Positions 10,457 to 44,097 of a stretch of 56,439 nt of DNA are shown here, in pieces (position 1 is the first letter of the stretch; every line of letters begins with the position of its first letter). The position numbers and the translations under genes are program-made. This DNA comes from a virus (Duplodnaviria; Caudoviricetes). The notes below the pieces were generated by a model that worked only from the letters and a program-made list of their open reading frames with translations, did not search any database and had not been told where the DNA came from. The DNA lies in IMG/VR virus record IMGVR_UViG_3300034374_008412, positions 1-56,439 of that record; one strand, written 5' to 3'.

Positions 10457-10457
10457 G

Positions 10458-11022: not shown

Positions 11023-11026
11023 TATT

Positions 11027-12142: not shown

Positions 12143-12185
12143 TTATTATAACTTTGTGATGAAGTATTTATGAATTAGTTGTATT

Positions 12186-16420: not shown

Positions 16421-16421
16421 A

Positions 16422-16736
16422 CTATTTCTTATTTGCGAGTTCTTTGTTAAGGTATTCAAGCATATATTCGACTGCTTCTCTTTCTTCTGCATCAATGTTA
16501 TTGTCTGCAAGAAGTTGTTTATTAGCCGATATAGTTGTTTTAAGTTCATCTAAACTCATATTTTTTACATCATCAATAAACCTTTTAGGAAGGTTAGATT
16601 CAAAAGTTTGCTCAACCTTATTTGGTTCATTTTTCTTTTTTGGTTTGTTCTTTTTTGGTTTGTTAAAGTAAAATAATGCAAAAGCTATTGTCAATAACCC
16701 TACACCAATAATTACTCTATTGTTTCTCTGCTCCAT
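16422..16736 (-). CDS. Membrane-anchored hypothetical protein
   Basis: N-terminal TM followed by Lys-rich linker. Confidence 0.7.
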   Translation of the reverse strand: MEQRNNRVIIGVGLLTIAFALFYFNKPKKNKPKKKNEPNKVEQTFESNLPKRFIDDVKNMSLDELKTTISANKQLLADNNIDAEEREAVEYMLEYLNKELANKK

Positions 16737-17043
16737 CTTTTTTATTATTAGATTGTCTTATAAAATGATTATAATGAAAAATACAAGCCCACAAAAATAA
16801 AATTGATAAACCTATATTTAAAATTACCTCTGTTAATGGTGGTACACTCATTGTTAAAAAATTAAATAAGCTACCACAAGCTATTGTTATTAAACCTACT
16901 TTAATAGTAGTTTGCTCCCATTTTGGAAGTTTAGCCATCGTACCACTCCTACCATATACAAATACTATAAAAGCAGTAACACTTAATGCAATAACACAAT
17001 TACAAAAAGCATTTATAATTTTAATTATCTCCATTGTTTCCAT
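16717..17043 (-). CDS. Three-TM holin-like protein
   Basis: Three hydrophobic helices; adjacent to lysins. Confidence 0.55.
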   Translation of the reverse strand: METMEIIKIINAFCNCVIALSVTAFIVFVYGRSGTMAKLPKWEQTTIKVGLITIACGSLFNFLTMSVPPLTEVILNIGLSILFLWACIFHYNHFIRQSNNKKDGAEKQ

Positions 17044-17326
17044 TTTCTACTTTATTTAAAAATTTATTACTAATTAACTCAACACCTTTTAATCCTAAAA
17101 AACCAAGAACAAAAGCTATTGACATTTGATATTTCATATCTACTCTTGTTATATCTAATATCAAAGGAGTAATATAGTTTGCCGAAGCAACTCCCGATAT
17201 TAAACTAAAAAAAGTAGTCTTTATATTTAATGTTGCCTTCTTTCCTATAAGTAACAAAGCACCGAATAATCCTGCAACAGATATTCCGATGTTAAAACCT
17301 ATTTCCTGCAATATTTCCCTCATCAT
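17021..17326 (-). CDS. Putative holin
   Basis: AGLFGALL...GVASANYITP...AFVLGFLGLKGVE, class I holin-like pattern. Confidence 0.65.
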   Translation of the reverse strand: MMREILQEIGFNIGISVAGLFGALLLIGKKATLNIKTTFFSLISGVASANYITPLILDITRVDMKYQMSIAFVLGFLGLKGVELISNKFLNKVENGNNGDN

Positions 17327-18277
17327 TTATACGTTTTGATAATCATTTGAATAATTTATTAATACATCTGTACCATCATAATACAGAACTAAAGTAGTTA
17401 TTTCACTTGCTCCTTGTCCTATTGAAATAGTACCACTTGGTGCTTTACAATTACCACCCGATATAGTCCAAGTAGTAATATCAACGGGAGAAGATGATTT
17501 CTGTATTATCTTTATAAAATATGTTGCTCCTGCTTGTAAATTTGTAAATGTAACACTAACATTTGAAGTAGCAGAAGCTAAATCAAGTGGTTGGCTATTA
17601 CCATTATTACCATCAATAGTTACTGCGTTTGCAGTAATAGTATTTGTAGCACTTTGTGGAGAATATATATAACCACCTACTATTGAACCATTTATATCTA
17701 TTGAATTTGGTACATCATTAGTTCTACCAATAGCAGAAACTAAAAGACCTTGACATATTGTACCATTTGTTTTAATAACAATACCAACATTTTGAATTAA
17801 ATCATTTGAACCCGTAGGTTTTGTTTGAGTTAAAGTTCCCGTTTTAGAAACATATAAAACATCTCCTTCTGTTAATCCCGTAAAACCCGTTAAATTCTCA
17901 TTATAAACACCACTTACTACTCCATAGTTATCTTTTGTATCAGAAGTGTTCATTTCTTCTTTAGCAATACCAATACAAGGCATTTTTGAAGGGTCGTCTG
18001 CATCAGCTATTCCAACTAATATTCTATTAGAACCACCTATTTCTCCTTTTGAATACAATGGAGAACCTATTGGTATTGTAGCACCTTCATCGTTTCTAAC
18101 TTCAATCATATTAACTGAATTAAAGTTATTTTCCCAATTTGTACCATTGTATTTTAATACTTGTTGGGTTTCAAGAGAAGTTAAGGTAACATCTGTTAAA
18201 TCACCTAAAGAAGTTGCACCACCCGATGATGAACCACCACTTCCGAAAACTGAAAAGAATTGGTTGCTACGTTCCAT
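17327..18277 (-). CDS. Spike/receptor-binding-like protein 1
   Basis: Gly/Ser N-terminal linker, LGDLTDV and LKYNGTNWEN fibre-type motifs; C-terminal domain shared with 19369-20955. Confidence 0.65.
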   Translation of the reverse strand: MERSNQFFSVFGSGGSSSGGATSLGDLTDVTLTSLETQQVLKYNGTNWENNFNSVNMIEVRNDEGATIPIGSPLYSKGEIGGSNRILVGIADADDPSKMPCIGIAKEEMNTSDTKDNYGVVSGVYNENLTGFTGLTEGDVLYVSKTGTLTQTKPTGSNDLIQNVGIVIKTNGTICQGLLVSAIGRTNDVPNSIDINGSIVGGYIYSPQSATNTITANAVTIDGNNGNSQPLDLASATSNVSVTFTNLQAGATYFIKIIQKSSSPVDITTWTISGGNCKAPSGTISIGQGASEITTLVLYYDGTDVLINYSNDYQNV

Positions 18278-18286
18278 AATTATACT

Positions 18287-18568
18287 TTATACATCTATCG
18301 TTGTCCATTCCGTAGAATCGGGGTAGATTTCTATTAAACTATTTCTTTGTTCTTCTGTTAATCCTGCTAATGCAGGAGCAGAATGTCTTACACCTTCCAT
18401 AATAAAAGGCATAGCTACTTGTGTTCCATCTACCTTCTGTATTGTTCGAGTAGAATATTTAATAGCATTATAAGTAGGGTCATCAGCAAGTATTGATGCT
18501 TGAACTGAAGCATCGGTATCTTCCCATCCTTGCCAATCCGATATATCAAAAGGTAAATACTTAACCAT
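18287..18568 (-). CDS. Hypothetical protein (possible spike chaperone)
   Basis: Small ORF between spike-like genes. Confidence 0.6.
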   Translation of the reverse strand: MVKYLPFDISDWQGWEDTDASVQASILADDPTYNAIKYSTRTIQKVDGTQVAMPFIMEGVRHSAPALAGLTEEQRNSLIEIYPDSTEWTTIDV

Positions 18569-19365
18569 TATAATCCATATTTTGTATTAATATAACTATC
18601 TATTTCTGTTTTTTCGGAAGCAGATACCTTATGGTCTATTAAGATAGTTTCAGCTATCATTCCACCAAAACCTCTAAGACTTACTGAATCTCCACCACCG
18701 AAACCTAACTTACCATTTGAACTTGGAATTGCAGTTGTTCTCGTATCGGTAGAAGTACCTACTCCTGCTATTGTTTGAGTTAATGTTCCACTATCCAAAT
18801 CTTTATCCCAATATCCAATCATATAATACCAAGTATTTTTAACTATATCTAATCTTGTTAAATCAGTACCATCATCTCCTAAAAACCAATGTGATTCATC
18901 AGATGTTCTTCTTAAATATTGAGCATAACCTTCATTAGCAACTGAAGTTTCTGTATTACCAAAAATCATATGAATATCACTTGTATTATTCATATCTGTA
19001 TTCCACATAAAAACTGTTACCATAGTAACTGCATTATCTAAATCATAGACATTTGGACTTGGTAAACTTTCAGAGAATAAAAATGTTTTTTCACTCCCTA
19101 AAAATATTTCTTGCGATGTTTGAATTGCAGGTTGTCCGTTAATTTGATTATCGAACCATTCGGGTTGATTAACACCCGTTGATTGTGTAACATCTATATT
19201 TGTAGCAGACCTATCTTCAATTCTACTTACCTTATTAGAGCCATCTTTTGTTACTCTTGTAGAATCGGCATCGTACCAAGCAATTATGCCCGTTACGTTA
19301 GGTAAATCTCCACCTCCACCACTTCCCGATGAACCATTATTAATAAATTGAGGAATATGTACCAT
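18568..19365 (-). CDS. LamG/concanavalin-like lectin domain protein
   Basis: IIAWYDAD, NTWYYMIGYWD, FGGMIAETIL...EIDSYINTKYGL. Confidence 0.7.
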   Translation of the reverse strand: MVHIPQFINNGSSGSGGGGDLPNVTGIIAWYDADSTRVTKDGSNKVSRIEDRSATNIDVTQSTGVNQPEWFDNQINGQPAIQTSQEIFLGSEKTFLFSESLPSPNVYDLDNAVTMVTVFMWNTDMNNTSDIHMIFGNTETSVANEGYAQYLRRTSDESHWFLGDDGTDLTRLDIVKNTWYYMIGYWDKDLDSGTLTQTIAGVGTSTDTRTTAIPSSNGKLGFGGGDSVSLRGFGGMIAETILIDHKVSASEKTEIDSYINTKYGL

Positions 19366-19368
19366 ATT

Positions 19369-20955
19369 TTAAGAATAATTTAGTGAGAAGTTTACTAAGC
19401 AATCTGTACCATCATAATATACAACTAAAGTATCTATTGCAGATGCACCCGTAGATATAGTAGGTGCAGTTCCACTTGGGAATTTAACTACACCACCACT
19501 TATAGTGTATGTACCAATATTAACGGGAGAAGAAGACTTCTGAATAACGGGTATAAAATATGTACCCCCTGCTTTTAAGTTGGTAAATGTTAAGGTTATA
19601 TCTCCCGTAGCACTTGCTAAATCTAATCTTTGAGAATTACCATTATCCCCATCAAATGTACTTGCATTTGCCGATACCGAAATATCAGAACCTTGTGTAC
19701 TCCAAATTTGATTATCTACTTGAAGACCACCTTTAAATACGTTTAAATCATTTGCTCCTGCTTGATATATTCCGTATTTATTAGTTCCCGTTGTATGTCC
19801 ATCTAAGTAAATATGATAAGCATTGGTACAATTAGTAATAGCCATACCCAAACTTTTTAATCCGTGGTAAGTAGTAACTATTCCTGCACCACTTGGAGAA
19901 GAAATGTAAATATCACTTAAATTAGTAATTGTACCCGATATAGCAGTTAAACAACTTACACCTATTAAATTAGTATTTGTATTAGTTGAATTATTTATTA
20001 CACTAATATTAGTACCATCAGCATCTCCATTATTAATTCTTGAATATATACCATAAGCAGAACCCGTACCACCATTTTCAGAATTAATATACATTCCATA
20101 GTTTATACCATTTGCTCCTGCATTACTATTAGTAGATGAGTTTTCAACCCACATTCCAAAAGTAGCACTACTTCCACTCGTAGTTTTTGATATACCTAAT
20201 TTTATATCATCATTAGGAGTTTGACCTATTCCCGTATTACCATTTAAATAGTTTAAATTACTATTGCTATCATAAATACCATACGAATTTCCACTACTAA
20301 CACTATTTTGTATGTAAATACCTAATGAATCTCCACTACTCGTATTACTATTATTTACAAAAACTCCGTAAGCATCACTACTACTTGTATTAGTTGATTT
20401 TATATAAACCCCAATATTATCAGCACTTGATGAATCAGTTATAAATAAACCACCAACACTTTTACCACTACTTGTTGCTACTTGTGAATGAATACCTACA
20501 TATTCATTACCTAAATAAGTAATTGTGTATGGAGTATTTGCAGTTGCAAAACTTCCTGCTACATTAGAACCCGTTATTGTACCCTGCGTACTTGCTCTTA
20601 TACCTATATTATTAGTAGAAGTGTTTGAAGTTGCATTAAAAGTTCCACCAAAAATGTTAGTTCCACCACCCGTAGCTTGTGAGTTAATACCATAACCATC
20701 ATTAAAGGTATTTCTAAGCCTTAAAGTTTCTGATTTAGTAGAATTATCTATATAAACAAGAGAAGAAGAAAATGGAGCAACATTAATACCTATTGTTGTC
20801 CCATCATCTCTAATTAAAGAGTTTCCTAATGTAGTTCCATCGGGAGTCCATTTTGCTACATAATTAAGTGTACCACTACCCGATACACCACCACCACCAC
20901 CCGAAGATGAACCCCCACTTCCAAAGACTGCGAAAAATTGATTATTGCCCTGCAT
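19369..20955 (-). CDS. Spike/receptor-binding-like protein 2 with beta-solenoid G/N/S/T repeats
   Basis: Repeated NxGxY / YGxY units; GSGTLNYVAKW; ATG 20955 matches the paralogue's N-terminus. Confidence 0.7.
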   Translation of the reverse strand: MQGNNQFFAVFGSGGSSSGGGGGVSGSGTLNYVAKWTPDGTTLGNSLIRDDGTTIGINVAPFSSSLVYIDNSTKSETLRLRNTFNDGYGINSQATGGGTNIFGGTFNATSNTSTNNIGIRASTQGTITGSNVAGSFATANTPYTITYLGNEYVGIHSQVATSSGKSVGGLFITDSSSADNIGVYIKSTNTSSSDAYGVFVNNSNTSSGDSLGIYIQNSVSSGNSYGIYDSNSNLNYLNGNTGIGQTPNDDIKLGISKTTSGSSATFGMWVENSSTNSNAGANGINYGMYINSENGGTGSAYGIYSRINNGDADGTNISVINNSTNTNTNLIGVSCLTAISGTITNLSDIYISSPSGAGIVTTYHGLKSLGMAITNCTNAYHIYLDGHTTGTNKYGIYQAGANDLNVFKGGLQVDNQIWSTQGSDISVSANASTFDGDNGNSQRLDLASATGDITLTFTNLKAGGTYFIPVIQKSSSPVNIGTYTISGGVVKFPSGTAPTISTGASAIDTLVVYYDGTDCLVNFSLNYS

Positions 20956-20989
20956 ATTTTTACCTTTAATTTTAGGCAAGACAATAAAA

Positions 20990-22903: not shown

Positions 22904-23413
22904 CTATTTTTTCATATCAAAATATTTTGACATTAATTGATTTATCTTTTTAAATACTCTACTACTTTCTTGAAAACCTAAACGACTTAAATTTTCAAAA
23001 ACACTTACAATTAGTTGTATAGAAATTAAATGAAGTATAGTCCAATAAATAAAATCGTATATCACACCAACTTTATCTTGTATGAATGATAACTTCATAG
23101 TGTTTACAATAGCTATCATACAAGTATATATGATAACCTTTGCTACAAACCTACCTAATCTTTTGCTCTGTATCTTTTTACCTTCCTTTATAGAAGCATA
23201 AACACCCGTTACGAACTCTATTCCTAACAACAATAAAAAAGCTAAATAAACCATTAATTCTATCCCTAATATTTTATCTACTAAAGCACTTAATGTTCCA
23301 AAAGTAAACGACATACCAAGCATAGGCTTATAGTTTTTGTAATGTAATGTAGATTGAAATAAATCTTCCATTGATACAAACCCCCAATCTTTTATGTATT
23401 CATTAGCTTTCAT
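22904..23413 (-). CDS. Phage holin family 4-like membrane protein
   Basis: EFVTGVYASIKEGKKIQSKRLGRFVAKVIIY...SVFENLSRLG. Confidence 0.7.
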   Translation of the reverse strand: MKANEYIKDWGFVSMEDLFQSTLHYKNYKPMLGMSFTFGTLSALVDKILGIELMVYLAFLLLLGIEFVTGVYASIKEGKKIQSKRLGRFVAKVIIYTCMIAIVNTMKLSFIQDKVGVIYDFIYWTILHLISIQLIVSVFENLSRLGFQESSRVFKKINQLMSKYFDMKK

Positions 23414-24657: not shown

Positions 24658-24807
24658 TTATTTTTTTATAAACTTATTATAACCATAATAAGCAATTACT
24701 AAAGCACCACCAATCATAATTAATTTTTTGTGCTTCATCCAAATCTTTTGTAATGGACTAATTTTATCCACTACAACTACTTCCTCTGTTACGTTTGTTT
24801 CTTCCAT
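24658..24807 (-). CDS. Small single-TM protein (49 aa, not in track)
   Basis: KHKKLIMIGGALVIAYYGYNKFIKK. Confidence 0.65.
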   Translation of the reverse strand: MEETNVTEEVVVVDKISPLQKIWMKHKKLIMIGGALVIAYYGYNKFIKK

Positions 24808-25367
24808 TATCTTCTAAATTTTCTAATTGCAAAAACACCTAATCCTAAAAGAATAACTCCCCCTGCAATCATTAAACCTTTATTTTGTAAAATTCCTGCT
24901 TTTTTTGGTTCTTCCATTAATTCTTCACTTGCTCCTGCTCCTGCGTTTTCACTACCTAATGCCTTATCTTTAAGAACATTAGTTAAATCTTTTACTATTG
25001 ATGGTTTTACTGCTTCCTCGATTTCAGCAGGAGTATCATCTATGGCAGGATTAGAACCTGCACTTAAATTGTTAGGATGAACGCTTCTACAAAGGCTATT
25101 CCATTTTGCTCTACCAACACCTAAAGGCTTTTTACGAGTACAACTTTCATAGTCAGTCGTTCTTTTCGCCTTCATATCAAGTCTTTCTTTTCTGTTGTCA
25201 AGACCTCTTTTCTTTATTCTATCTCTCATCGCTTTTCCTTTCTTACCAAAGAGATAATCAAAATCTTCATCAATAGACATATCTTCTCCATCAAAGTCTA
25301 AATATGGCGATACTTCCAATTCATCTAACTCATTGAAACCATCAAAGTTTGAACTACATCCACACAT
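24807..25367 (-). CDS. C-terminally anchored membrane protein with acidic NFDG leader
   Basis: SNFDG, LDFDG, FDYLFGKK; C-terminal TM followed by RKFRR. Confidence 0.75.
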   Translation of the reverse strand: MCGCSSNFDGFNELDELEVSPYLDFDGEDMSIDEDFDYLFGKKGKAMRDRIKKRGLDNRKERLDMKAKRTTDYESCTRKKPLGVGRAKWNSLCRSVHPNNLSAGSNPAIDDTPAEIEEAVKPSIVKDLTNVLKDKALGSENAGAGASEELMEEPKKAGILQNKGLMIAGGVILLGLGVFAIRKFRR

Positions 25368-25410
25368 AATTTTTAATTTTATTGTTACTTATTTATTACT
25401 TATTTATTAC

Positions 25411-25899
25411 TTATTTTCTTGGTCTTAAAGCAAAGAAACCTACTAAACCGATTGCTAATATACTACCAACAATGATTAAACCTTTTTTACTTCCTAATCC
25501 TGCAAGTTTTTGTCCTTGGTCAGTTGGCATACCATTTTCAGTAGTTAAATCATCTCCCCCAACGATTGAATCTCCAACATCAGCAATAGTGTTACCAATT
25601 TTATTTCCAAGTTTTGAAGCCTTACATTTTAAAACTGCACTTCTTCTTGACATACCTTTGTCTTGGTAAAACTGAACACAAGACTTTTTATCAGTTGGAG
25701 CATCAGCACTACTACCAACATCATCCCCTCTTTTTTCTAACCTTTTAATTTTTCTTGCTTGTCTTCTTGCTTTTGCTTTTTTACCGAAAAGATTATCAAA
25801 ATCTTCATCAAAATTAGAATCATCTATATCTCCATTAAAATCAAGCATTTGAGATTCTTCTCCATCCCAACCATCAAAATTTAAAAATTCATTTTTCAT
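25411..25899 (-). CDS. C-terminally anchored membrane protein with acidic NFDG leader (paralogue)
   Basis: LNFDG, LDFNG, FDNLFGKK; C-terminal TM. Confidence 0.75.
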   Translation of the reverse strand: MKNEFLNFDGWDGEESQMLDFNGDIDDSNFDEDFDNLFGKKAKARRQARKIKRLEKRGDDVGSSADAPTDKKSCVQFYQDKGMSRRSAVLKCKASKLGNKIGNTIADVGDSIVGGDDLTTENGMPTDQGQKLAGLGSKKGLIIVGSILAIGLVGFFALRPRK

Positions 25900-25908
25900 A
25901 ATTACTTA

Positions 25909-26661
25909 TTATTTGTTTGTTCTTCTTTTTCTTAATATAAATAAACCACCTATTATAACTACACTTAAAACACTTGCACCAATAATAAGTGTTTTTGTTC
26001 TTTTACTTTTTTCTTCTTGTTGCTTTTTCAAAAACCCTGCTTGTGCTTCTGCTCCTTCTTTATTAGCTTCTGCTTCTAATTTAGTCATTCTTGTTTTTGA
26101 AATTGCTCCTGCCATAGCACCTAAAACTGCTCCACCCGTTGCTATTAAAGATGAAGTAACAGCAGGTTCTAAATTTGAAAATGAAAAGTCGGGGTTTTCT
26201 TCTAAAAATATCATTTCATCATCTGTATAATCAATGAAATTACTTTTTAAGTCAAATTTAGCTTTACAATTTGCTCCACATCCTAAAGGTTTTTTGTCTT
26301 TTCCTGCACTCATACCTTTTAATAAAGCATCCTCGTTACCACCAAGACTTAACCATTTTCGGGTTGCTCTTTTCCATTCAGTCGTTTGTTCAGATTTTGC
26401 TCTGTAAAGCCTTGATGCCATCCCTCTAAAGTTGAATCTTAACAAAGTAAGAAAAGCACCTCTCGGAATAGCTAAACCAACTTTTTTAGCACCTCTACCT
26501 ATTGCAGAACCACCTAATTCAGTTCTACATTGTATTCTTGCTTGTCTTTTATTTTTTCCTTGTGCCTTTGCTTCATCTTCGCAAGACCTTCTTTTTTTAC
26601 CCTTGAAGAAATTATCAAATTCATTTAATTCTTCGTCTATATAATAAGTTCCGTTTTTCAT
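25909..26661 (-). CDS. Membrane protein with acidic leader and C-terminal TM
   Basis: EFDNFFKGKK; Cys pairs; C-terminal TM followed by RKRR. Confidence 0.75.
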   Translation of the reverse strand: MKNGTYYIDEELNEFDNFFKGKKRRSCEDEAKAQGKNKRQARIQCRTELGGSAIGRGAKKVGLAIPRGAFLTLLRFNFRGMASRLYRAKSEQTTEWKRATRKWLSLGGNEDALLKGMSAGKDKKPLGCGANCKAKFDLKSNFIDYTDDEMIFLEENPDFSFSNLEPAVTSSLIATGGAVLGAMAGAISKTRMTKLEAEANKEGAEAQAGFLKKQQEEKSKRTKTLIIGASVLSVVIIGGLFILRKRRTNK

Positions 26662-26670
26662 AATAAATAA

Positions 26671-27456
26671 TTAATCAACATCTAATCCAAATTCCATATC
26701 ATCGCCATCAAAATCAGAAAATTTTCTCATTTTAGTATTCACTCTTCCTGCCATAGCTTTTGCTTTTGCTTCTAATTGTGCTTTATAAGGACTTGCAGAA
26801 GGCTTTGCAATAGTAGTCGGTCTTGATGTAGCTATTGGTCTTACAGATGGTGGTCTTACAGATGGTTTTTTATATATAGTTGGTTTACCAAAAATAGCAT
26901 TTCCAACAGACGACACACCTTTACCAATATTTCCAAACAATCCCGTACCCGTTGGTTTTCTAAAGCCACCACCACTAATAGGTTTTGGACTTGTACCACC
27001 ACTAATAGGTTTTGGACTTGTACCACCTCGAATTGGGTCGCCTAAAGGTACGATTGGTAAACTTGGCTTATCGGGTATATCAATTCCAATAGGTCTATCG
27101 GGTCTTAACCAAGAAGGAGTATCATTTGATGGTTTTCCTTCACTTGGCTTATTATCGCCAATATTGACATTAAGGATGCTTCCTGCTCCCGTTACACCAC
27201 CACCCGTAGCAATATCAACATCAGAACCTTGTCCTGCTTCACTTTCTACATCTCCACCTACCGATGGTTCAGATGGCATACCGAAGCCACCACCACCACC
27301 ACCACCTAAAGATTCTTCTTCTTCGGGTAGTCCTTCTGTTTCCATTTGAGAACGCAACAAGGCTTCTTGTTGTCTTTTTCTTTTTAAATAGATATATCCA
27401 CCACCTAATAAAAGTAGAAGTATAAGTAAATTCCTATTTGTTTTATCCTTTGCCAT
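26671..27456 (-). CDS. Pro/Gly-rich low-complexity membrane-anchored protein
   Basis: N-terminal TM, poly-Gly, P/K/S repeats, C-terminal FSDFDG. Confidence 0.75.
   Translation of the reverse strand: MAKDKTNRNLLILLLLLGGGYIYLKRKRQQEALLRSQMETEGLPEEEESLGGGGGGGFGMPSEPSVGGDVESEAGQGSDVDIATGGGVTGAGSILNVNIGDNKPSEGKPSNDTPSWLRPDRPIGIDIPDKPSLPIVPLGDPIRGGTSPKPISGGTSPKPISGGGFRKPTGTGLFGNIGKGVSSVGNAIFGKPTIYKKPSVRPPSVRPIATSRPTTIAKPSASPYKAQLEAKAKAMAGRVNTKMRKFSDFDGDDMEFGLDVD
26968..27027. repeat. 27-bp tandem duplication (GGTSPKPIS x2)
   Basis: accaccactaataggttttggacttgt present twice plus a partial copy. Confidence 0.85.
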
Positions 27457-27461
27457 AATTC

Positions 27462-27866
27462 CTATTTATTATTCTTTCCGTAATAAGCTAAAGCCTTTTT
27501 TAAATCTGCTCCATCTAAATCATCTTTAAACCAAGCTATCAAATCTTCTCCATTACCAAAATTTGCATCAAAGTAGTTTTTAACCTCTATTCTTTTTTGA
27601 GAATCTAATGGGTCTAAAGTATTCCAAATTAATTTTTCGTTAGTACCCCATCCTTTCATAGCCTTATATAAGTTTTCAGCACTTTCTTTTGGATTAAATT
27701 TAGTATCTGTTCCCTTATCAACATTAGCTATACCCTTTGCAACTTCATCTATTTCATTATTATTCTTAAAAGATTTTTTACCTTTCTTTTTAATGAAAAA
27801 ATATGCTCCTGCTCCTAAAAGTCCAACAACACCTATTCCTATCGCTATTTTAATATTCTTATTCAT
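27462..27866 (-). CDS. TM-anchored single-repeat annexin protein A
   Basis: AENLYKAMKGWGTNEKLIWNTL...RIEVKNYF...FG...DL...KDDLDG. Confidence 0.8.
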   Translation of the reverse strand: MNKNIKIAIGIGVVGLLGAGAYFFIKKKGKKSFKNNNEIDEVAKGIANVDKGTDTKFNPKESAENLYKAMKGWGTNEKLIWNTLDPLDSQKRIEVKNYFDANFGNGEDLIAWFKDDLDGADLKKALAYYGKNNK

Positions 27867-27871
27867 ATACT

Positions 27872-28336
27872 TTACTTATATGCGTTTCTAAAATCACTTT
27901 GTTTTTTAATCAAATCATTAATACTACTTGATTTTCTTCCCATTATTACTGAATGAACATTATCTGTTTTTCTTCCCCAAACACCATCTTCTACTAAATA
28001 AGAAAAATCAGCTATTTTTTTTCTTCTTGCTTCTTTTGAAGAATCAGAATTTTTAGGAGATTTTCTTGCTATGTTAATAATGCTATTCAAAAGTTTTTGT
28101 GATGATTTAACCGATTCTCCCCTTGAACCTCTACTCAGCTTTTTATTCTTATCAACTGAATTAGAATTTGTTTTAGAAGTAGAAGTGGAAGTAGAAGTAT
28201 TAATATCGCTTGAAGTAATTGAATCTACGTCAAAATTTGAATCTTTCTTTAAAAACTTTTTATATAAGAAAAAACCACCAACACTAATTAATGCTAATGA
28301 ACCTATACCTATTGCTATTTTTGTACCTTTTTTCAT
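27872..28336 (-). CDS. TM-anchored peptidoglycan-binding (PG_binding_1-like) protein
   Basis: LSRGSRGESVKSSQKLLN...LVEDGVWGRKT. Confidence 0.75.
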   Translation of the reverse strand: MKKGTKIAIGIGSLALISVGGFFLYKKFLKKDSNFDVDSITSSDINTSTSTSTSKTNSNSVDKNKKLSRGSRGESVKSSQKLLNSIINIARKSPKNSDSSKEARRKKIADFSYLVEDGVWGRKTDNVHSVIMGRKSSSINDLIKKQSDFRNAYK

Positions 28337-28341
28337 ATTGT

Positions 28342-28761
28342 TTAATTAAAATATCCTTTTGCTTTAGCTAATTCGCTTCCATCTAAATCATCTTCAAACC
28401 ATTGAAATAAAGATTCTCCTTTACCTAAATAGGCATCAAAATATTGTTTAACACTATTTCTTTGTTCTTTATTTAATGGCTCTAAAGTGTTCCAAATCAA
28501 ATTTTCGTCTGTACCCCATCCCTTCATAGCTTTGTATAATTGTTCAGCAGGAAATTTAGGGTCAAATTGAACCTTTGTGTTTTTACCTTGTAAGTTACCT
28601 TTACTTTCTTTTGATAGAATAGATTTATTTCCAAGTTTACGAAGAACTTTACCTCTACCCGTTACTTTTTGATAAACCTTTAAACCAACATAAGCTACAC
28701 CAATACCTAAACCTAAATAGATAGCTAATTTAATTTTTCCTTCTTTTGTAGATATATCCAT
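28342..28761 (-). CDS. TM-anchored single-repeat annexin protein B
   Basis: AEQLYKAMKGWGTDENLIWNTL...QRNSVKQYF...FEDDLDG. Confidence 0.8.
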   Translation of the reverse strand: MDISTKEGKIKLAIYLGLGIGVAYVGLKVYQKVTGRGKVLRKLGNKSILSKESKGNLQGKNTKVQFDPKFPAEQLYKAMKGWGTDENLIWNTLEPLNKEQRNSVKQYFDAYLGKGESLFQWFEDDLDGSELAKAKGYFN

Positions 28762-28763
28762 TA

Positions 28764-29264
28764 TTAAAAGTTTGTAATTTTACTTGCTAAAGTTAATTGT
28801 TCCTCATCATCTAATTCTGACTTTAATCTCTCAGATAATGATTCTCCACCTTGTATTCTTGAATATGATTCTGCTACTTTTGATACATTACCTTTACTTC
28901 CTAATTGCTCAAAAACACCATAAATAGCTTCTTCATCAGTTCCCCAACCATCAACTGCATCTTTAATTATATTAGCATAAGATACTGCTTGTTGTTCAGT
29001 TATTGATTTACCACCATTAGTTTTATACCATAATGGCGACCAATATCTTCCCGACCAAAGACTATCGTTTACCTTATCCATTTCTTTTGATTCGGGAGTA
29101 TCAATAACACCCGTTTTCTTTAGGATAGGTCTAACAATACCAAAATAGGCAAAACCTATTACTACGGGTATTCCTATCACATATAAATATACTTGTGGTG
29201 GAATCATCCCTAAAGCACTTGCTCCTGCTTGACCTTGTGTCATACCCTTTCCTTTAACTGCCAT
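28764..29264 (-). CDS. TM-anchored single-repeat annexin protein C
   Basis: ANIIKDAVDGWGTDEEAIYGVF...Y...SLSERLKSEL. Confidence 0.75.
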   Translation of the reverse strand: MAVKGKGMTQGQAGASALGMIPPQVYLYVIGIPVVIGFAYFGIVRPILKKTGVIDTPESKEMDKVNDSLWSGRYWSPLWYKTNGGKSITEQQAVSYANIIKDAVDGWGTDEEAIYGVFEQLGSKGNVSKVAESYSRIQGGESLSERLKSELDDEEQLTLASKITNF

Positions 29265-30045
29265 ATTCCCAATTTTTTATAAAAGCATCTAACTTTTCAA
29301 ATCTATCTAAACTTTGTTTACTATTTGCTGACTTAAATACATTTAAGAAAACATTATATGCATCTATTCTTGGATAACCTAATGCTAAATAAATTCTAAG
29401 TCCATTTAAGTCTGCTTCAACCTCACTACTCGGAGTTTTATTAACGTAATAATGCGAATACTCGTGAAGTAAAATAGCCATTCTCATAGGTATAGAATAC
29501 CTTTCAAATGCTTTTTTTGACACTTCTATTCTACCCGTTAATTGACTTATCCTTGCAGGAGTTTTAATTGGCTTATTGTCTGCCTTGCTCCTTACTTGGT
29601 CGTAATAGTCAATTTGAAATTTACCATTATCACTAAAGTAACTTTCTCCTTTCATACTTGCAGGAAGATAACTTGCTTCCTCTGAAAATTCTTGTGCGAA
29701 ATTTACAAAAGCCTTTGTCTTCCTTGACATAGGTATTCTTTTAGTGCTTTTTAAAGGCAATATTTCTATTGCTTTTATTTTAAACCCATCATTATTTAAA
29801 GGTGTTTGCCCATCTTTATAAACTAACAACCTTGAAACATTTGCACTTTCGGGTAAACCGATATAATATATTTCAGTACCATTAACCCTTGCGTACCTTT
29901 TAGAGTAATATGTTTTTGGTGCATTTGCATCACATATCTTTATCCATAGTTTTTCTGACTTTGGAGTAGATATTACTACTTTTATAGTACAAGCTAATTC
30001 ATCTGTTTTTATATCTCTAACCATCCTATAACGATGCTTCTGCAC
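29254..30045 (-). CDS. Zincin (HExxH) metalloprotease, candidate maturation protease
   Basis: AILLHEYSHYY followed by EVEADLNG (gluzincin-type third ligand); true start may be slightly downstream. Confidence 0.75.
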   Translation of the reverse strand: MQKHRYRMVRDIKTDELACTIKVVISTPKSEKLWIKICDANAPKTYYSKRYARVNGTEIYYIGLPESANVSRLLVYKDGQTPLNNDGFKIKAIEILPLKSTKRIPMSRKTKAFVNFAQEFSEEASYLPASMKGESYFSDNGKFQIDYYDQVRSKADNKPIKTPARISQLTGRIEVSKKAFERYSIPMRMAILLHEYSHYYVNKTPSSEVEADLNGLRIYLALGYPRIDAYNVFLNVFKSANSKQSLDRFEKLDAFIKNWEYGS

Positions 30046-30292
30046 CTTCTAATTTACCACTCTTATTTAATTTATAAATACCATATATAGCTAAAGCAAC
30101 ACCGAAAGCAATCATCAAATTTCTTTTTCTTTTATTTCCGATTTCACTCATAGTTGGAGTATTACCAACTGCGTTTCTATATGTATTTTCATCGTGAACT
30201 TCTAATTGACCTTCTTTTTGTTGTTCAACTAACCATTCTTTAAATGGCTTTGAAGTTCCACTCATTTTGTATTTTTGGTTTGCACTTGACAT
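30026..30292 (-). CDS. Small single-TM protein
   Basis: PFKEWL, YRNAVG, C-terminal TM. Confidence 0.7.
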   Translation of the reverse strand: MSSANQKYKMSGTSKPFKEWLVEQQKEGQLEVHDENTYRNAVGNTPTMSEIGNKRKRNLMIAFGVALAIYGIYKLNKSGKLEGAEASL

Positions 30293-30294
30293 AT

Positions 30295-30519
30295 CTACTT
30301 GTTTTTAATAATTAATCTCCCTGCTACTACACCAACTAATATTCCAATCCAAGGTTTCTTTCTTAAAGCAATAGAACCAATTAAACCGAGTACCCCACCG
30401 ATAACTGCTCCTTGCATATTATCTTTGGAGTTCTTTAAGATTTTATTTGAAAGGTCTTTATTTCCAATATCCTTAACAACCTCAATCTTTTGTTTAAATT
30501 CCTTGCTATCAGTTTTCAT
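30295..30519 (-). CDS. Small two-TM Gly-zipper protein
   Basis: GAVIGGVLGLIG...WIGILVGVVAG. Confidence 0.7.
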   Translation of the reverse strand: MKTDSKEFKQKIEVVKDIGNKDLSNKILKNSKDNMQGAVIGGVLGLIGSIALRKKPWIGILVGVVAGRLIIKNK

Positions 30520-31148
30520 TAATTTCTACTTCTTCTAATTAAAAAAGCAGTCAAACCGATAACTGCAATAGCACCTACTCCAATACCAATTATTAATCCC
30601 GTTTTAGATTTTTTTGGTTGATTATCAAATTGTTGATTTTGATAAGTTTGCATTTGTGAATCTACTTGCTCGTTACCACCTCTATTAAATAAACCACCAA
30701 AAATTGCAGTACCAATTTGTGCGATTGAATCTGCGTTATCTTTTAAGAAGTCGCCTTTCTTTTTTTCATCGCCTTTTTTATCTTCATCAGAATCAGAATC
30801 AGAATCAGCATCAGCTACATTTTTATCTTTTTTTCTATTAAAGAAGTTTGCAAATTCTTCTGTTTTATCCTTTTGTTCAATAAGGATTAAAGCAGATATA
30901 TTGCGTATTAAAGCCTTTGCTTTAGGACTTCTTTTTTCTTTAAGTCTTAAAACTGCTTTTCGCAATATTAATTTTAACTTTTTTGGAGAAGCATCATCAT
31001 CTACTTCAAAACCTGCATCTCTAAATGCTTCAATAACTCCTTTTCTATTATTTACTAATAACCAAGCTAATTGATTAAGAACAAGTCTTTGTCTTTTTCT
31101 TTTACCTTGTCCTTCAACACCTCTTATATTTCTTCTCTTACTAATCAT
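30519..31148 (-). CDS. C-terminally anchored membrane protein
   Basis: EFANFFNRKK; C-terminal TM followed by RRSRN. Confidence 0.75.
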   Translation of the reverse strand: MISKRRNIRGVEGQGKRKRQRLVLNQLAWLLVNNRKGVIEAFRDAGFEVDDDASPKKLKLILRKAVLRLKEKRSPKAKALIRNISALILIEQKDKTEEFANFFNRKKDKNVADADSDSDSDEDKKGDEKKKGDFLKDNADSIAQIGTAIFGGLFNRGGNEQVDSQMQTYQNQQFDNQPKKSKTGLIIGIGVGAIAVIGLTAFLIRRSRN

Positions 31149-31158
31149 TTTTTTTAAT

Positions 31159-31578
31159 TTACTTTTTCAACATTAAAGCTACTCCCATAAGGACAAAACC
31201 ACCGATAATAATTGAGTTTATTGCCATTTTATTGACTACTCTATTTTCTGATTCTCCCATAGCATTATAATAAGCACTCTGTTGTTGTCCTAAAAAATTA
31301 GAATGTAAATCTCTATTCATAGCTAATGAGTTTATTTCCTTATCTTTTGAAGAACAAGAACTACATATACCTTCTAAAAGTTCTCTATCGGGATGAATTT
31401 CTGCAAGGCTATTCAAACCTTTTTCCCCATAGTTTCTTACAAAGTGCTTTATTTGGCTTTCAAGTTCTTCTGTATTTCTCGCTTTTCTATACGAATCATA
31501 CTTGTTCAAAGTAAAATGAACATCAGCAGGAACTCTCTCTGCCAAATATTTAAACATTGTAATTCTTTCTGAACTCAT
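31159..31578 (-). CDS. C-terminally anchored membrane protein
   Basis: LAEIHPDRELL, CSSC, YYNAMG, C-terminal TM. Confidence 0.75.
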   Translation of the reverse strand: MSSERITMFKYLAERVPADVHFTLNKYDSYRKARNTEELESQIKHFVRNYGEKGLNSLAEIHPDRELLEGICSSCSSKDKEINSLAMNRDLHSNFLGQQQSAYYNAMGESENRVVNKMAINSIIIGGFVLMGVALMLKK

Positions 31579-31579
31579 A

Positions 31580-31711
31580 TTAGTTATTTATTTCAATAGA
31601 TGCTTTATTTTTTTTCATTTGGTTATAAATCACAAATGAAACTAAACCGATAATTAATAGGTTGTGAACATTCTGACCACCTAAAAACTTTGGACTTTTA
31701 ATATCAAACAT
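31580..31711 (-). CDS. Small single-TM protein (43 aa, not in track)
   Basis: MFDIKSPKFLGGQNVHNLLIIGLVSFVIYNQM. Confidence 0.6.
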   Translation of the reverse strand: MFDIKSPKFLGGQNVHNLLIIGLVSFVIYNQMKKNKASIEINN

Positions 31712-31735
31712 TTTTTATTTTTTTTAAGATTAAAC

Positions 31736-31773
31736 AAAAAAAGGTAGGTTTAACTTTAAGCTAACCTACCTTT
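31736..31773 (-). terminator. Intrinsic terminator downstream of putative MCP
   Basis: AAAGGTAGGTT...AACCTACCTTT with A-run on + strand (T-run on - strand). Confidence 0.7.
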
Positions 31774-31844
31774 CAGTATTATACAATTAATAACTTTAAT
31801 CGTAGCAACTTGCTGAAAAGCAAGTCTAATAAGTTAAGACTTTC

Positions 31845-32582
31845 TTATCCTCTTCTTCCTTTCAAAGCACGTAATGCACCTTTTGAAAGTTTTAAAGTTT
31901 CAGATTTTACAAGTCTTGGGTTTCCATAACCTCTAACTGCTCTTCTACCCGTTAAAGTTCTTGCAGTAGATACAGTTTCAGAAGGATAGAAGTAAATCTT
32001 CACAACTGCTGATGCTAATACTGAACTTAATACGATTGCTGTGAAACCATCAATTTTATAAGAGAACTTCACAACTACGATAGTAGATTGTTGCTGATAA
32101 GGGTCAATAGTTGGAACTAAAGTCTTTTGACTTTCATTACCATTAACATCCTTTTGAATTAATGTTAAAGTTTCTAATACTTGGTTAGCAGTAGAAGATT
32201 GGTAATAGGTTTGCCCCACTACGAAACTTTTATTCATTGACTGATACAAAAATTCTTGGTAAGTAACCCCTGCAATTCCCATTGTAATAGAAATCGCTGA
32301 CGAATTTTGCCAATTCGGAGAAGAATAAGCTAACGTACTATACGCACCTAAAATAGTACAAGGAAACGCAGTAGTCGTGTTCGTGTTTGTGATAGATACG
32401 ATGTAAGGTTGAGATGTCGGAGCAGATGCTTGTCCTACTGCCATATCAAACTCATCATCTGCGTAACCATCGAAATCATAATCTTCATCTGCAAAATCGT
32501 AGTCGTCATCCCACCCATCTGCATTGAAGAAATTTTCGTTAGCTTCTTCTTGTGCTTCTGAAAAATATTTTCTTAAATCCAC
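31845..32582 (-). CDS. Putative major capsid protein (single jelly-roll candidate)
   Basis: ~145-aa beta-rich core between an acidic leader and an Arg-rich tail; own promoter and terminator; next to the packaging-type ATPase; has a paralogue. Confidence 0.55.
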   Translation of the reverse strand: MDLRKYFSEAQEEANENFFNADGWDDDYDFADEDYDFDGYADDEFDMAVGQASAPTSQPYIVSITNTNTTTAFPCTILGAYSTLAYSSPNWQNSSAISITMGIAGVTYQEFLYQSMNKSFVVGQTYYQSSTANQVLETLTLIQKDVNGNESQKTLVPTIDPYQQQSTIVVVKFSYKIDGFTAIVLSSVLASAVVKIYFYPSETVSTARTLTGRRAVRGYGNPRLVKSETLKLSKGALRALKGRRG

Positions 32583-32646
32583 TTTTGATAAATTTTTAAT
32601 AATTAATAACTAATTTCTTTTTTTTTCTAATTCAATCCTTCCTTGA

Positions 32647-32766
32647 TTATTCAGCAGAAGCAGACTTTTTTTCAGCCAATTTCTTTTGAACCATTGATGC
32701 GATAATTACACCTCCTGCAACACCTAATGCAGTAAATACAATTCCCATAATTGCTTTCTTGTCCAT
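32647..32766 (-). CDS. Small single-TM protein between ATPase and MCP (39 aa, not in track)
   Basis: MDKKAIMGIVFTALGVAGGVIIASMVQKKL. Confidence 0.7.
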   Translation of the reverse strand: MDKKAIMGIVFTALGVAGGVIIASMVQKKLAEKKSASAE

Positions 32767-32887
32767 AATTTCAAAATTATTTTTTAGATTAATAAAATGT
32801 TTTTTAATGCCTACTATTCAAATAGCGACACTCCAAATTTATTTTATTATACTCAATTAATAGCTATTAATATTATTTTTGAAAATA

Positions 32888-32960: not shown

Positions 32961-33773
32961 TTATTTATTTGGAATGTACATTTTTACCATTAAATCTTTA
33001 ATATGTTTATGTGCAGTTTCGGGAGTAAACTTTAGCTTACCTTTTGCATCTCTCATATTTAGTAAAGGTTTAACTTTTTTATTGTAATTCAAAGAAATGT
33101 ATTCATCAATAGCTTCTAATATTTGTTTTTTGCTATAATTACCATAGATATATTCATCATCACAATTATATGTAACGTGAAATCTTTTATTTCCATTATG
33201 ATATTGGTTATTAACCATAATCTCTACTAACTTCAATGCTTCGTGCCTATCATCAAACTTTTTATGATGTTTGTCAACTGAATCAGAATTTTTGTGAAAT
33301 CTAATCCAATTTAAGTTTTGCCATACTTTAGGCGATACACGACCAATACTTTGAAAGTGCATAATAATATCAGTAGAGGTATGACGATTAGTACATAAAG
33401 CACCAATAAGGTCATTCGGAGCATAGTCAGAAACATATTTATTGACATCTTCTATTAATAATAACCCCCCTTTGTAATTATCTAAAATAAGTTTTAGTGT
33501 ATCTGCAATTTCAGTTAAACTCATTTTTGAACCATCGGGGTTATATGGTCTTATTCGTCTAACTTCTACTTTTGGATGGTGGCTAAATACTTTAACGTGG
33601 GAAATTGATAAACCCTTTACATTTTCAAATTCATCGTTTACATCAAGTATTAATGCTCTACGAGGTCTAATTGTTGAACCACCTTTAACATATTGCTCTA
33701 TGACTTGCATAGTAGTATATGTTTTTCCTATTCCTTTTTTACCAACTGCAACCCCTAATTGTGCTTCTCTCAT
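32961..33773 (-). CDS. FtsK/HerA-superfamily (A32/P9-like) genome packaging ATPase
   Basis: Walker A GKKGIGKT at N-terminus, ILDVNDEF, Walker B LLLIED, arginine finger TNRH followed by IIMHFQ. Confidence 0.75.
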   Translation of the reverse strand: MREAQLGVAVGKKGIGKTYTTMQVIEQYVKGGSTIRPRRALILDVNDEFENVKGLSISHVKVFSHHPKVEVRRIRPYNPDGSKMSLTEIADTLKLILDNYKGGLLLIEDVNKYVSDYAPNDLIGALCTNRHTSTDIIMHFQSIGRVSPKVWQNLNWIRFHKNSDSVDKHHKKFDDRHEALKLVEIMVNNQYHNGNKRFHVTYNCDDEYIYGNYSKKQILEAIDEYISLNYNKKVKPLLNMRDAKGKLKFTPETAHKHIKDLMVKMYIPNK

Positions 33774-34567
33774 ATTTTTATATTAAATAAATTTTTAGTT
33801 TCAACTACATCATATATACGTTTACCTAACAAAATTGCTCGTTTACCTAATTCAAAATCTTTAAAATTTTGTACGCAATCTTCAATTTCTTCTTTTGGAA
33901 ATACACTTGATGAGTTATTAAACTTTTTCAAAATATTTTTTCTTACGAATGAATAATGGTGCATCTCTAATTCATCCCTATCAAAAACAATACAATTTCC
34001 TACTTTGCTTTGCCTTGTTTGGTCAATACGGATTGGATAATTTTGGTGTAGTTTATATTCTGTATCTTCTTTTAACTTAATAATAAAAGGTACATAATAG
34101 GTTTCTTTTGGTTCTAATCTATAAAAAGGTTCTTTGTAATATGTAACCATTTGACAAAATGAAGTATCATAATTACCATCAATTATTTCATTAAAGGCAT
34201 AACTAAATTGTTCGGAAGTGTAAAATTCATCGGTGTCCATCATTAACAAGTAGTCGCAACCAACTTCCTTGCAATCATTTAAACCAACATTTCTTTTTAC
34301 TAATTCATTAGCAGTACCACTTTCCCAATAAGTTTCTCCATTATCTAAATACAATACTTCGGGTTCATACTTGATAATATTATCAACTAAACCTTGATTC
34401 ATAAGTTTTTTAGAAATTAATTCACTTGAATTATTATGCTCCCCAAAATTAGAAACCACTTGATAGACTATTGTTATATAATCTACCAAGGGTCTAATTG
34501 ACATAATGGAATGTTCTAAAAGTTCTTCTCCATCAAAAAGGTTATATACTACACCAATTTTATTCAC
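33770..34567 (-). CDS. GT-A fold glycosyltransferase (GT2-like)
   Basis: FDGEELLEHSI, KRNVGL, LLMMDTDEFY (DxD), MHHYSFVR. Confidence 0.75.
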   Translation of the reverse strand: MNKIGVVYNLFDGEELLEHSIMSIRPLVDYITIVYQVVSNFGEHNNSSELISKKLMNQGLVDNIIKYEPEVLYLDNGETYWESGTANELVKRNVGLNDCKEVGCDYLLMMDTDEFYTSEQFSYAFNEIIDGNYDTSFCQMVTYYKEPFYRLEPKETYYVPFIIKLKEDTEYKLHQNYPIRIDQTRQSKVGNCIVFDRDELEMHHYSFVRKNILKKFNNSSSVFPKEEIEDCVQNFKDFELGKRAILLGKRIYDVVETKNLFNIKI

Positions 34568-35382: not shown

Positions 35383-36150
35383 TCATTCGCTTTTATGGTA
35401 TTTCATATATTTAAAATGCCTTCCCCAATCTTCTTTGTTCCAATGAAATGCGTGTACTCCCGTGTGTACCCAATTTTGAACTCCCCTTTGCAATAAATCT
35501 TCTGCAAAATAAGTGTCGGGTGGATTATTACCATTTTCGGGATGCCTAAACTCAAAATGTTGCATTACCTTACGTTTCATTAAGCAACAACCAATACCTG
35601 CAATATATGTAGGTTGTAATTTTCCATTAACGTAAGAATGCCAAAATAAAGAAGACTTAACGTGAAATCTAAATGCTCTCCAATATTCGTGGTTCTTATC
35701 AACTTGTGCTAAACAAGGAGTTCTATTTGCTCCATCTAATATTTGATACAAAGCATTTACAATAGGCTTCCTACATTCTAAAAGTCTTTCTATAACATCG
35801 TGTTGAGGAAATACATCACTTTCTAAATGTAACATATAATCGCAATCACTTTCTAAAAAGTATCTTCTTAATTGATTATGGCTATCTGCCATTTTATCAA
35901 ATACTGAATAACCCGTATAGTCTTTCCAAAATACTTTTAATCCATACTTCTTATTAAGCATCCTTGCATTTTTATTAGTAGCTGAATTATCTGCTACATA
36001 ATATTCTAATCTGCTTTTAGGATAACTAAACTTATTTAAGTTATCTAAAAAAGCATCAAGGCAATAATTTTTACCTTCGTATGTAGGTATAGCTATTAAT
36101 ATCTTTGGTAGATTTTTAGGTTTCTCCTTTTTGACTTCAACGTAATTCAT
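35383..36150 (-). CDS. GT-A fold glycosyltransferase
   Basis: ILIAIPTY, VADNS, YMLHLESDV, AGIGCCLMKR, PDTYF. Confidence 0.75.
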   Translation of the reverse strand: MNYVEVKKEKPKNLPKILIAIPTYEGKNYCLDAFLDNLNKFSYPKSRLEYYVADNSATNKNARMLNKKYGLKVFWKDYTGYSVFDKMADSHNQLRRYFLESDCDYMLHLESDVFPQHDVIERLLECRKPIVNALYQILDGANRTPCLAQVDKNHEYWRAFRFHVKSSLFWHSYVNGKLQPTYIAGIGCCLMKRKVMQHFEFRHPENGNNPPDTYFAEDLLQRGVQNWVHTGVHAFHWNKEDWGRHFKYMKYHKSE

Positions 36151-40535: not shown

Positions 40536-40537
40536 AA

Positions 40538-42616: not shown

Positions 42617-42625
42617 AACTATTGT

Positions 42626-44083: not shown

Positions 44084-44097
44084 AAATTGCTTATTGA

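Follow-up and report, generated by a model that had tools for sequence, protein, structure and literature searches.

Positions 27462-29264 of the virus record IMGVR_UViG_3300034374_008412 carry three paralogous genes for bitopic membrane proteins, each of which consists of an N-terminal anchor, a linker and one complete five-helix annexin repeat. The window analysed here is the complete record, 56,439 bases long with about 30% G+C. Every annexin feature that was checked is present except the four-repeat core, and on the strength of their sequences the proteins are members of the annexin domain family. A fourth gene, lying between them, probably encodes a membrane-anchored peptidoglycan-binding protein. 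Our tentatively favoured reading is that these are proteins of a viral membrane that bridge to the lipids of the host envelope at entry, switched by calcium and assisted by the wall-binding partner.

The cluster comprises four minus-strand open reading frames (ORFs) with 2-5 nucleotides (nt) between them, the last of which overlaps the gene upstream by 11 nt. The proteins, with their lengths in amino acids (aa) and the positions of their transmembrane (TM) helices, are as follows.

27462..27866, minus strand: 134-aa protein; TM helix at residues 7-25, basic juxtamembrane KKKGKK, linker, annexin repeat at residues ~57-130 (MKGWGTNE)
27872..28336, minus strand: 154-aa protein; TM helix at residues 7-25, Ser/Thr-rich linker, probable PG_binding_1-like domain
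28342..28761, minus strand: 139-aa protein; TM helix at residues 12-30, disordered linker at 43-68, five-helix annexin repeat at 69-136 (MKGWGTDE ... D125)
28764..29264, minus strand: 166-aa protein; TM helix at residues 25-43, longer spacer, divergent annexin repeat (VDGWGTDEE ... KSELDD)

An earlier note on this DNA had proposed three ORFs with an N-terminal TM helix and an annexin repeat, and this description is borne out by a hydropathy scan, by Pfam, by a search of PDB sequences and by a fold search. The motifs on which it was based are present in the translations (those beginning LYKAMKGWGTNEK and LYKAMKGWGTDEN, and AVDGWGTDEE). A single N-terminal hydrophobic helix was detected in each of the four proteins, and a flexible linker of about 25-45 residues lies between the anchor and the annexin repeat. 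In the 139-aa type this linker (residues ~53-60) keeps K-G-N-x-x-G in most members of the family alignment, which is odd for a plain spacer.

In searches with the Pfam Annexin model (PF00191, cut-off 25 bits), the 139-aa protein scored 30.7 bits (E 3.3e-7) and the 134-aa protein 25.6 bits (E 1.3e-5), so that both pass the check that the earlier note had named, whereas the 166-aa protein, at 15.9 bits (E 0.014), falls under the cut-off. A home-built hidden Markov model (HMM) of the repeat matches the 166-aa protein with an E-value of 3.6e-7 and, among all six-frame window ORFs of at least 50 aa, matches only the three annexin ORFs. Searching PDB sequences with the 139-aa protein (phmmer) returned 76 chains at E ≤ 1, with annexin VI as the best (1.1e-26), and all 60 of the matches listed are annexins or annexin A2 fusions. 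The alignment to the PDB annexins reads FDP..AE.LYKAMKG.GTDE, as in repeat 1 of animal annexins.

The structure of the 139-aa protein was modelled with AlphaFold2 (AF2) on an alignment of 16 family members. The model contains an N-terminal helix (residues 6-42), a disordered segment (43-68, with a predicted local distance difference test score, pLDDT, below 50 for 43-59) and the five helices of an A-E repeat (69-79, 86-93, 98-112, 118-125 and 128-136). Per 10-residue block, pLDDT is 93-98 from residue 71 and 81 for residues 61-70. When this model was compared with the PDB using Foldseek, every row shown was an annexin or an annexin A2 fusion, at a root-mean-square deviation (rmsd) of 1.1-2.8 Å; the best rows (annexins A8, VI, IV and V) cover 74-78 columns at 1.1-2.0 Å and ~31% identity, with a best E-value of 2.1e-4. 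The structural match to annexins that the earlier note looked for was hence found, and the likeness is confirmed as lying far beyond chance and not as a chance motif. The four- or eight-repeat core of the canonical eukaryotic annexin was not found, there being one matched stretch in each 134-166-aa protein.

The type II calcium site of annexins, which we take to be a (M/L)-K-G-x-G-T loop with an acidic residue about 38-40 positions downstream, has its GxGT loop and downstream acidic residue in all three window proteins. Within the 139-type family (n = 16), G81 is kept in 15/16 members, G83 in 14/16, and T84 and an aspartate or glutamate at position 125 in 16/16. The 166-aa type (n = 15) keeps the second glycine in 14/15, the threonine and the acidic residue in 15/15, and the first glycine in 7/15. 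In the PDB alignment, D125 falls at the acidic position, presumably the calcium ligand, of annexin VI repeats (domains 4 and 7). The residue between the loop glycines is tryptophan in 9 of the 16 family members, and annexin V inserts a residue of this type into the bilayer. At the level of residues, the canonical type II calcium site is conserved. Compared with orthologues on two metagenome contigs (L015 and L016), the annexin genes have ratios of nonsynonymous to synonymous substitution rates (dN/dS) of 0.25-0.47, the 134-aa orthologue in L015 being 81% identical with a dN/dS of 0.25, and these values point to purifying selection.

The earlier note had also described the annexin ORFs as flanking a TM-anchored peptidoglycan-binding protein. 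The flanking arrangement and the anchor stand, and the peptidoglycan-binding label is only probable. The domain of the 154-aa protein contains the motifs GSRGESVKSSQKLLN and EDGVWGRKT. On its own, 27872-28336 yielded no PDB sequence match and no Pfam match at E ≤ 1 except a weak one to DUF2621. It does match (BLASTP E 3e-5) the product of positions 9319-9660 on contig L002, a membrane-anchored protein whose gene adjoins the annexin gene of that contig and which scores 18.4 bits against PG_binding_1 (PF01471, cut-off 23). A profile built from five proteins of this kind (A5) matches the wall-binding domain of the endolysin 7rum (E 6.6e-4), the spore cortex-lytic enzyme 9h68 (E 4e-3) and, weakly, KZ144-type lysins (E 0.23-0.33), and the matches fall in the N-terminal or C-terminal wall-binding region of the solved lysins.

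A word search retrieved close relatives of the annexin proteins in 5 clusters. A profile search of 1.8 billion representatives returned 2423 proteins at E ≤ 1e-3, most of which are long multi-repeat annexins; among the best 150 of the 2423 are 13 small proteins (129-166 aa) that are matched over their full length, anchor included. Scanning viral contigs with a single protein revealed no relative, and scanning them with a 6-row alignment (A3) revealed one weak locus (L001). The order of the window genes (166-aa, 139-aa, wall binder, 134-aa) is repeated in metagenome contigs L014-L016, where the neighbouring genes are 56-99% identical. Contig L017 belongs to a more distant virus, in which a jelly-roll-like protein, the putative capsid protein of the window, is 71% identical and the block from a 364-aa protein to the annexins is kept. 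It has four annexin ORFs (175, 140, 135 and 237 aa, within 9460-12146). The anchor of its 237-aa form matches that of the window's wall-binding-like protein; a fusion of a peptidoglycan-binding-like domain to annexin was considered for this form and rejected, as only the anchor aligns (hhalign, 30 columns).

Through the jelly-roll protein we collected 61 viral contigs, 45 of which extend for at least 9 kilobases (kb) downstream of its gene. A TM-plus-annexin ORF of 147-190 aa lies 5-9 kb downstream of that gene in 15/45 contigs and is in every case of the 166-aa type, the most widely kept annexin type among the related viral contigs. A much more distant version of the module occurs on contigs L002, L008 and L004, which are binned in Bacteroidales and Paludibacteraceae metagenome-assembled genomes. 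There the order is a jelly-roll-like protein (210-231 aa), tail-anchored proteins, an HExxH protein, small membrane proteins, one or two TM-annexins, a TM-PG_binding protein and a large fibre-like protein, and in L002 a TM-anchored M15 cell-wall peptidase comes directly after the annexin and peptidoglycan-binding genes. By these gene orders, the pairing of a TM-annexin with a TM wall binder is conserved across lineages with almost no common sequence. A Bacteroidota host is suggested only by this distant module; L002 lies in genome G001, and when 401 sampled genomes from the phylum of G001 were searched with the jelly-roll protein there was no match, an outcome that is uninformative on the host.

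About thirty bacterial annexins, including single-domain proteins and some with transmembrane regions, have been surveyed, and the accessible part of the survey names none in viruses (Kodavali et al. 2014, PMC3894181); the description of bacterial homologues as sporadic in the earlier note agrees with this source as far as it is accessible. The single-domain annexins of Bacteroidetes reported there are found in Cytophaga hutchinsonii and, as neighbouring pairs, in Kordia algicida, Aquimarina agarilytica and Flavobacteriaceae bacterium HQM9, and the adjacency of short annexins is presented as a hint that functional units are formed by pairs or fours of domains (PMC3894181). The window's proteins resemble these in having one repeat per protein and adjacent genes, TM regions being reported for some of the Bacteroidetes proteins (PMC3894181). 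They are unlike them in belonging to a virus record and to a virus module that is conserved, in numbering three to four paralogues and in having a partner that binds the wall.

The likeness to the core repeats of eukaryotic annexins (A5, A4, A8 and VI; PDB 1avh, 1ann, 1w3w and 1m9i) extends to the fold (1.1-2.0 Å at ~31% identity), to a repeat-1-type sequence and to the GxGT loop and acidic ligand, both of which are kept. However, the window's proteins have one repeat where eukaryotic annexins form a four-repeat disc, a covalent TM anchor in place of soluble, reversible binding, and, in the PDB alignment of the 139-aa protein, a two-residue insertion before helix D. Annexin domains have also been described beside extracellular contractile injection systems, as predicted anti-eukaryotic effectors (Geller et al. 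2021, PMC8213781). These share with the window the link between an annexin domain and a phage-derived delivery machine (PMC8213781), but the host of the window's virus has peptidoglycan and its protein is membrane-anchored within a virus. Our literature search, which covered papers and not supplements such as Table S1 of PMC3894181, found no paper on a phage-encoded annexin. What is new here is the virus as a carrier, the three to four paralogues and their fixed place in a virus module beside a wall binder.

The annexin genes are part of a late block whose other members are listed below.

24807..27456, minus strand: four further single-pass membrane proteins, three C-terminally anchored and one N-terminally anchored and Gly/Pro-rich
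29254..30045, minus strand: 263-aa putative zinc protease with an HExxH motif (LLHEYSHYY), adjoining the annexin genes on their upstream side; weak SprT-like match (E 0.14)
30026..31711, minus strand: five small proteins upstream of the protease gene, with a hydrophobic segment evident or scored in four
31845..32582, minus strand: 245-aa jelly-roll-like putative capsid protein, highly conserved
32961..33773, minus strand: 270-aa P-loop ATPase (Walker A GKKGIGKT), a putative packaging or assembly ATPase

Nearly all genes between 24807 and 31711 specify small membrane proteins with a single pass, which makes a row of at least 13 with the annexin four included, and this tightly packed array lies between the jelly-roll and small ATPase genes on one side and fibre genes on the other. 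The four membrane proteins of 24807..27456 are kept in L015 at 56-89% identity. Upstream of the protease gene, C-terminal TM helices were scored by the hydropathy scan in 30519-31148 and 31159-31578, and hydrophobic stretches were seen by eye in the translations of 30026-30292, 30295-30519 and 31580-31711. The HExxH protein may be a maturation protease, and it has counterparts at the same place of the module in four lineages (L017 8706-9479 at 55% identity, L002 6375-6749 and L004 8472-9038, besides the window). Its gene is directly upstream of the annexin genes in both the window and L017.

Homologues of the 245-aa jelly-roll-like protein form more than 1600 clusters, on contigs of 45-80 kb. 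The AF2 model of this protein is an eight-strand β-sandwich with a pLDDT of 58, and the structures closest to it are jelly-roll capsid, turret and penton proteins, at Z 5.2-6.9 and a Foldseek E-value of ~2e-3, which is an unspecific level; an Atlas search with this protein gave no usable match. The 270-aa ATPase matches the PHROG 'terminase large subunit' (E 9e-7) and AAA_22 (E 0.004), has no PDB sequence match, and has Zot/DUF87-type neighbours in the Atlas, which serve as a lead only. An acidic motif, N-F/A-D-G-W/F-D, often followed by FD.LFGKK, occurs near the N-terminus of the capsid candidate (31845-32582) and of several tail-anchored proteins (24807-25367, 25411-25899, 25909-26661 and 26671-27456), and the product of 26671-27456 ends C-terminally in FSDFDGDD.

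The scan of 47 window ORFs against PHROGs turned up neither a portal nor an HK97-type capsid protein, and neither tail nor tape-measure proteins; a tailless, membrane-containing particle is a reasonable guess. The 'phage structural module' in which the earlier note had placed the annexin genes is a reasonable reading of the gene order, based on that order, on the absence of these tailed-phage hallmarks and on the low-confidence jelly-roll model (pLDDT 58; Z at most 6.9). Among 50,697 phage records, megablast found no match to the window between 20000 and 44000, and tblastn found none to the jelly-roll protein or to the 139-aa annexin. Phages with an internal membrane of the PRD1 type (Varidnaviria) carry the wall hydrolases P7 and P15, and their small membrane proteins build a delivery tube for penetration of the envelope. 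The window resembles PRD1 in that genes for small membrane proteins lie beside those for a capsid protein and an ATPase, with wall-directed proteins in the block. It differs from PRD1 in that no sequence relation was found, in a genome three to five times larger, and in a putative capsid protein with a single jelly roll at low confidence, where no double jelly roll was found and a putative membrane is indicated by the run of membrane-protein genes.

The 1.8-kb annexin stretch was found in 20 public runs from 17 studies, six of the runs being RNA libraries; seven of the runs may be its source. The label is freshwater for most of them and marine for one, and relatives also occur on marine contigs; an argument from the calcium of seawater was dropped because most runs are freshwater. 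The annexin genes are covered, with 0-2 differences, by RNA contigs from three libraries, and one such contig extends over 28743-32626. The RNA contigs of three runs stop at 32626-32828, a short way upstream of the jelly-roll gene, where a DNA run goes on. The depth of the RNA-library contigs over 28.4-32.6 kb exceeds that over 33.2-36.2 kb, while that of the DNA run is level. This gives a weak hint of a late transcript that runs from before the putative capsid gene into the membrane-protein genes, with a late promoter at 32626-32828; DNA carry-over is possible in RNA libraries, and the hint was not used to rank genes.

The reading that we tentatively favour for the annexin proteins, bridging from the viral membrane to the host envelope, would proceed as follows. 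The proteins would sit in the lipid membrane of the virus. In 17/19 family members the 15-residue stretch that follows the helix has more lysine plus arginine than the stretch that precedes it, and since a basic cluster follows the anchor, the positive-inside rule predicts a cytoplasmic annexin head at the time the protein is made. Once a vesicle is pinched inwards, the heads would come to lie on the outer face of the viral membrane. Calcium outside the cell and in the periplasm is roughly 1000-fold above that in the cytoplasm, so the repeats would idle in the calcium-poor cytoplasm and would switch on only outside the cell. There the tryptophan-bearing loop would attach to anionic phospholipid, and the viral membrane would be strapped to the leaflet of the host outer or inner membrane while the neighbouring protein grips the cell wall, all in the setting of envelope penetration and genome delivery. 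Because a wall binder has nothing to bind in the cytoplasm, the proteins would be carried out on the viral membrane and used in the next infection. The annexin genes are also ~10 kb from the lysis cassette (14480-17326) and do not occupy a position in a cassette of the spanin style.

Several observations weigh against this reading. The 166-aa protein falls under the Pfam cut-off, and the charge around the helix of 27872-28336 is ambiguous, with 3 lysine and arginine residues before it and 4 after. With the home-built HMM no annexin ORF was detected in 30/45 of the related contigs, so that the function is either dispensable or carried by a sequence that diverges fast. The putative capsid protein is only weakly supported as such (pLDDT 58; Z and Foldseek E no better than 6.9 and 2e-3), and virion lipid and a virion location of the annexins are predictions from the genes. 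Among cultured phage records, none with a protein similar to the 139-aa annexin was found and thus there is no proteome for comparison. A gene of a holin family (PF05105, 22904-23413) lies just 4 kb downstream, and the TM-M15 peptidase that follows the annexin and peptidoglycan-binding pair in L002 could be a signal-anchored endolysin.

It is possible, though we consider it rather unlikely, that the annexin proteins are assembly factors that act within the infected cell. Anchored in the cytoplasmic membrane of the host, their cytoplasm-facing repeats would label, gather or curve areas of anionic lipid, which the capsid proteins would then pinch off as viral membrane. No role at entry would be required, and the proteins could act free of calcium. 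The same cytoplasmic orientation is predicted under this explanation, which also suits the position of the genes among many small membrane proteins beside the putative capsid and ATPase genes, the RNA-library contigs that cover the annexin genes together with the jelly-roll gene, and the description of some annexins as binding membranes without calcium (PMC4656261). On the other hand, the strictly kept residues of the calcium site favour a calcium-dependent step, which is unlikely in the cytoplasm, and the conserved peptidoglycan-binding partner is left unexplained, as the cytoplasm has no cell wall.

The proximity of lysis genes has to be considered next, and these are listed here.

14480-17326, minus strand: lysis cassette with two endolysin-like proteins, a DUF5675 protein and a holin
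22904-23413: second holin-family gene (PF05105), apart from the cassette and inside the late block

Both endolysin-like proteins of the cassette are C-terminally membrane-anchored, and one belongs to the GH108 family. Inner-membrane spanin subunits have a general layout of N-terminal anchor, linker and lipid-binding head, which the annexin proteins resemble, and they could accordingly be imagined as accessories of lysis or egress that are anchored in the inner membrane, extend into the periplasm, and connect this membrane with the wall and the outer membrane, or fuse them, in the final step of lysis. In a variant, cytoplasmic heads would respond to the inflow of calcium when the holin opens. 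Besides the layout, the TM-M15 peptidase as the next gene in L002, the window's own holin-family gene at 4 kb downstream and the probable peptidoglycan binding of the partner speak for such a role. We nevertheless regard it as unlikely, since a recognisable cassette exists ~10 kb away, the charge bias predicts a cytoplasmic head in 17/19 members, the disordered linker of ~25 residues is short for spanning a periplasm of the widths that we assume, and the genes trail the capsid and membrane-protein module in three divergent lineages.

A further reading, to which we give a low probability, is that of a split annexin: three or four different anchored repeats would form an annexin-like disc on the viral membrane, and external calcium would trigger bridging and fusion with the host membrane. 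Were this true, a virus of bacteria would possess a calcium-triggered fusion device, and the widespread aquatic group would carry annexin repeats between bacteria, possibly towards eukaryotes. The interpretation given in the earlier note is borne out in part: the annexin identity, the anchor and the partner stand, whereas the placing of the proteins in a virion membrane, their oligomerisation into an annexin-like core and a Ca2+-triggered contact or fusion are conjecture.

A role in protecting the infected cell, by patching lesions that leak calcium, or in barring competing viruses is quite improbable in our view. Accessory genes of this protecting or excluding type usually reside in variable regions, whereas the annexin genes sit inside a conserved, morphogenesis-like block and persist in distant relatives, and three to four paralogues with a wall-binding partner would be left unexplained. 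The predicted cytoplasmic orientation does fit, and eukaryotic annexins have been described as membrane-repair proteins (PMC12249911, PMC13519369).

That the repeats resemble annexins by chance, or are degenerate relics that do not bind lipid, deserves almost no weight: the 166-aa protein is under the Pfam cut-off and the first loop glycine is lost in some of its relatives (kept in 7/15), but Pfam, PDB sequence and fold searches concur, the ligand positions are conserved, selection is purifying, and the notion is already contradicted for the 139-aa and 134-aa proteins. The probability that remains after these readings we assign to something not thought of.

Annexins are the textbook calcium-and-lipid proteins of eukaryotes, and here the annexin repeat is a conserved and multiplied component of a large, widespread and uncharacterised group of aquatic bacterial viruses that is apparently uncultured. 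If the proteins are in the particle, they offer a specific hypothesis, open to experiment, for the attachment of a tailless virus to the bacterial envelope and its passage across it. Single soluble repeats of ~75 residues would be the simplest system in which to study the binding of annexins to lipid. The 'sporadic' annexins of bacteria may in part be viral cargo.

Outside the late block described above, the window is organised as an unbroken minus-strand block from 12.2 to 52.8 kb with plus-strand genes at both ends, a RecT-like protein being among the latter. The 56,439-base window contains no tRNA genes. The remaining groups of genes are listed below.

17327..20979, minus strand: fibre or spike genes (316, 93, 265 and 536 aa)
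33770-34567 and 35383-36150: glycosyltransferase-like genes adjoining the ATPase gene; weak GT2, and Anp1 at 29.1 bits against a cut-off of 28.8
38763-51269: large-gene block with a zeta-toxin-like kinase, a 692-aa protein, ddrB-ParB, a 1606-aa DarB-like methylase/helicase and a 702-aa methylase

The 536-aa fibre-like protein (19369-20979) is repetitive and rich in Gly, Ser, Thr and Asn, and 18568-19365 matches the PHROG 'virion structural protein' (E 2.8e-8). A C-terminal segment is common to the 316-aa (17327-18277) and 536-aa proteins (repeat D4, 75% over 75 nt), as if the two fibres carried the same distal domain. The glycosyltransferase-like genes may serve the glycosylation of the virion or of the host surface, and the first of them is tandemly doubled in L017 (3342-4933). 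The block at 38763-51269 looks like an anti-restriction set that is perhaps delivered with the genome. Within it, the 692-aa protein has a segment in common with the zeta-toxin-like kinase (repeat D2), and the 1606-aa DarB-like and ddrB-ParB proteins have a common C-terminus (repeat D3).

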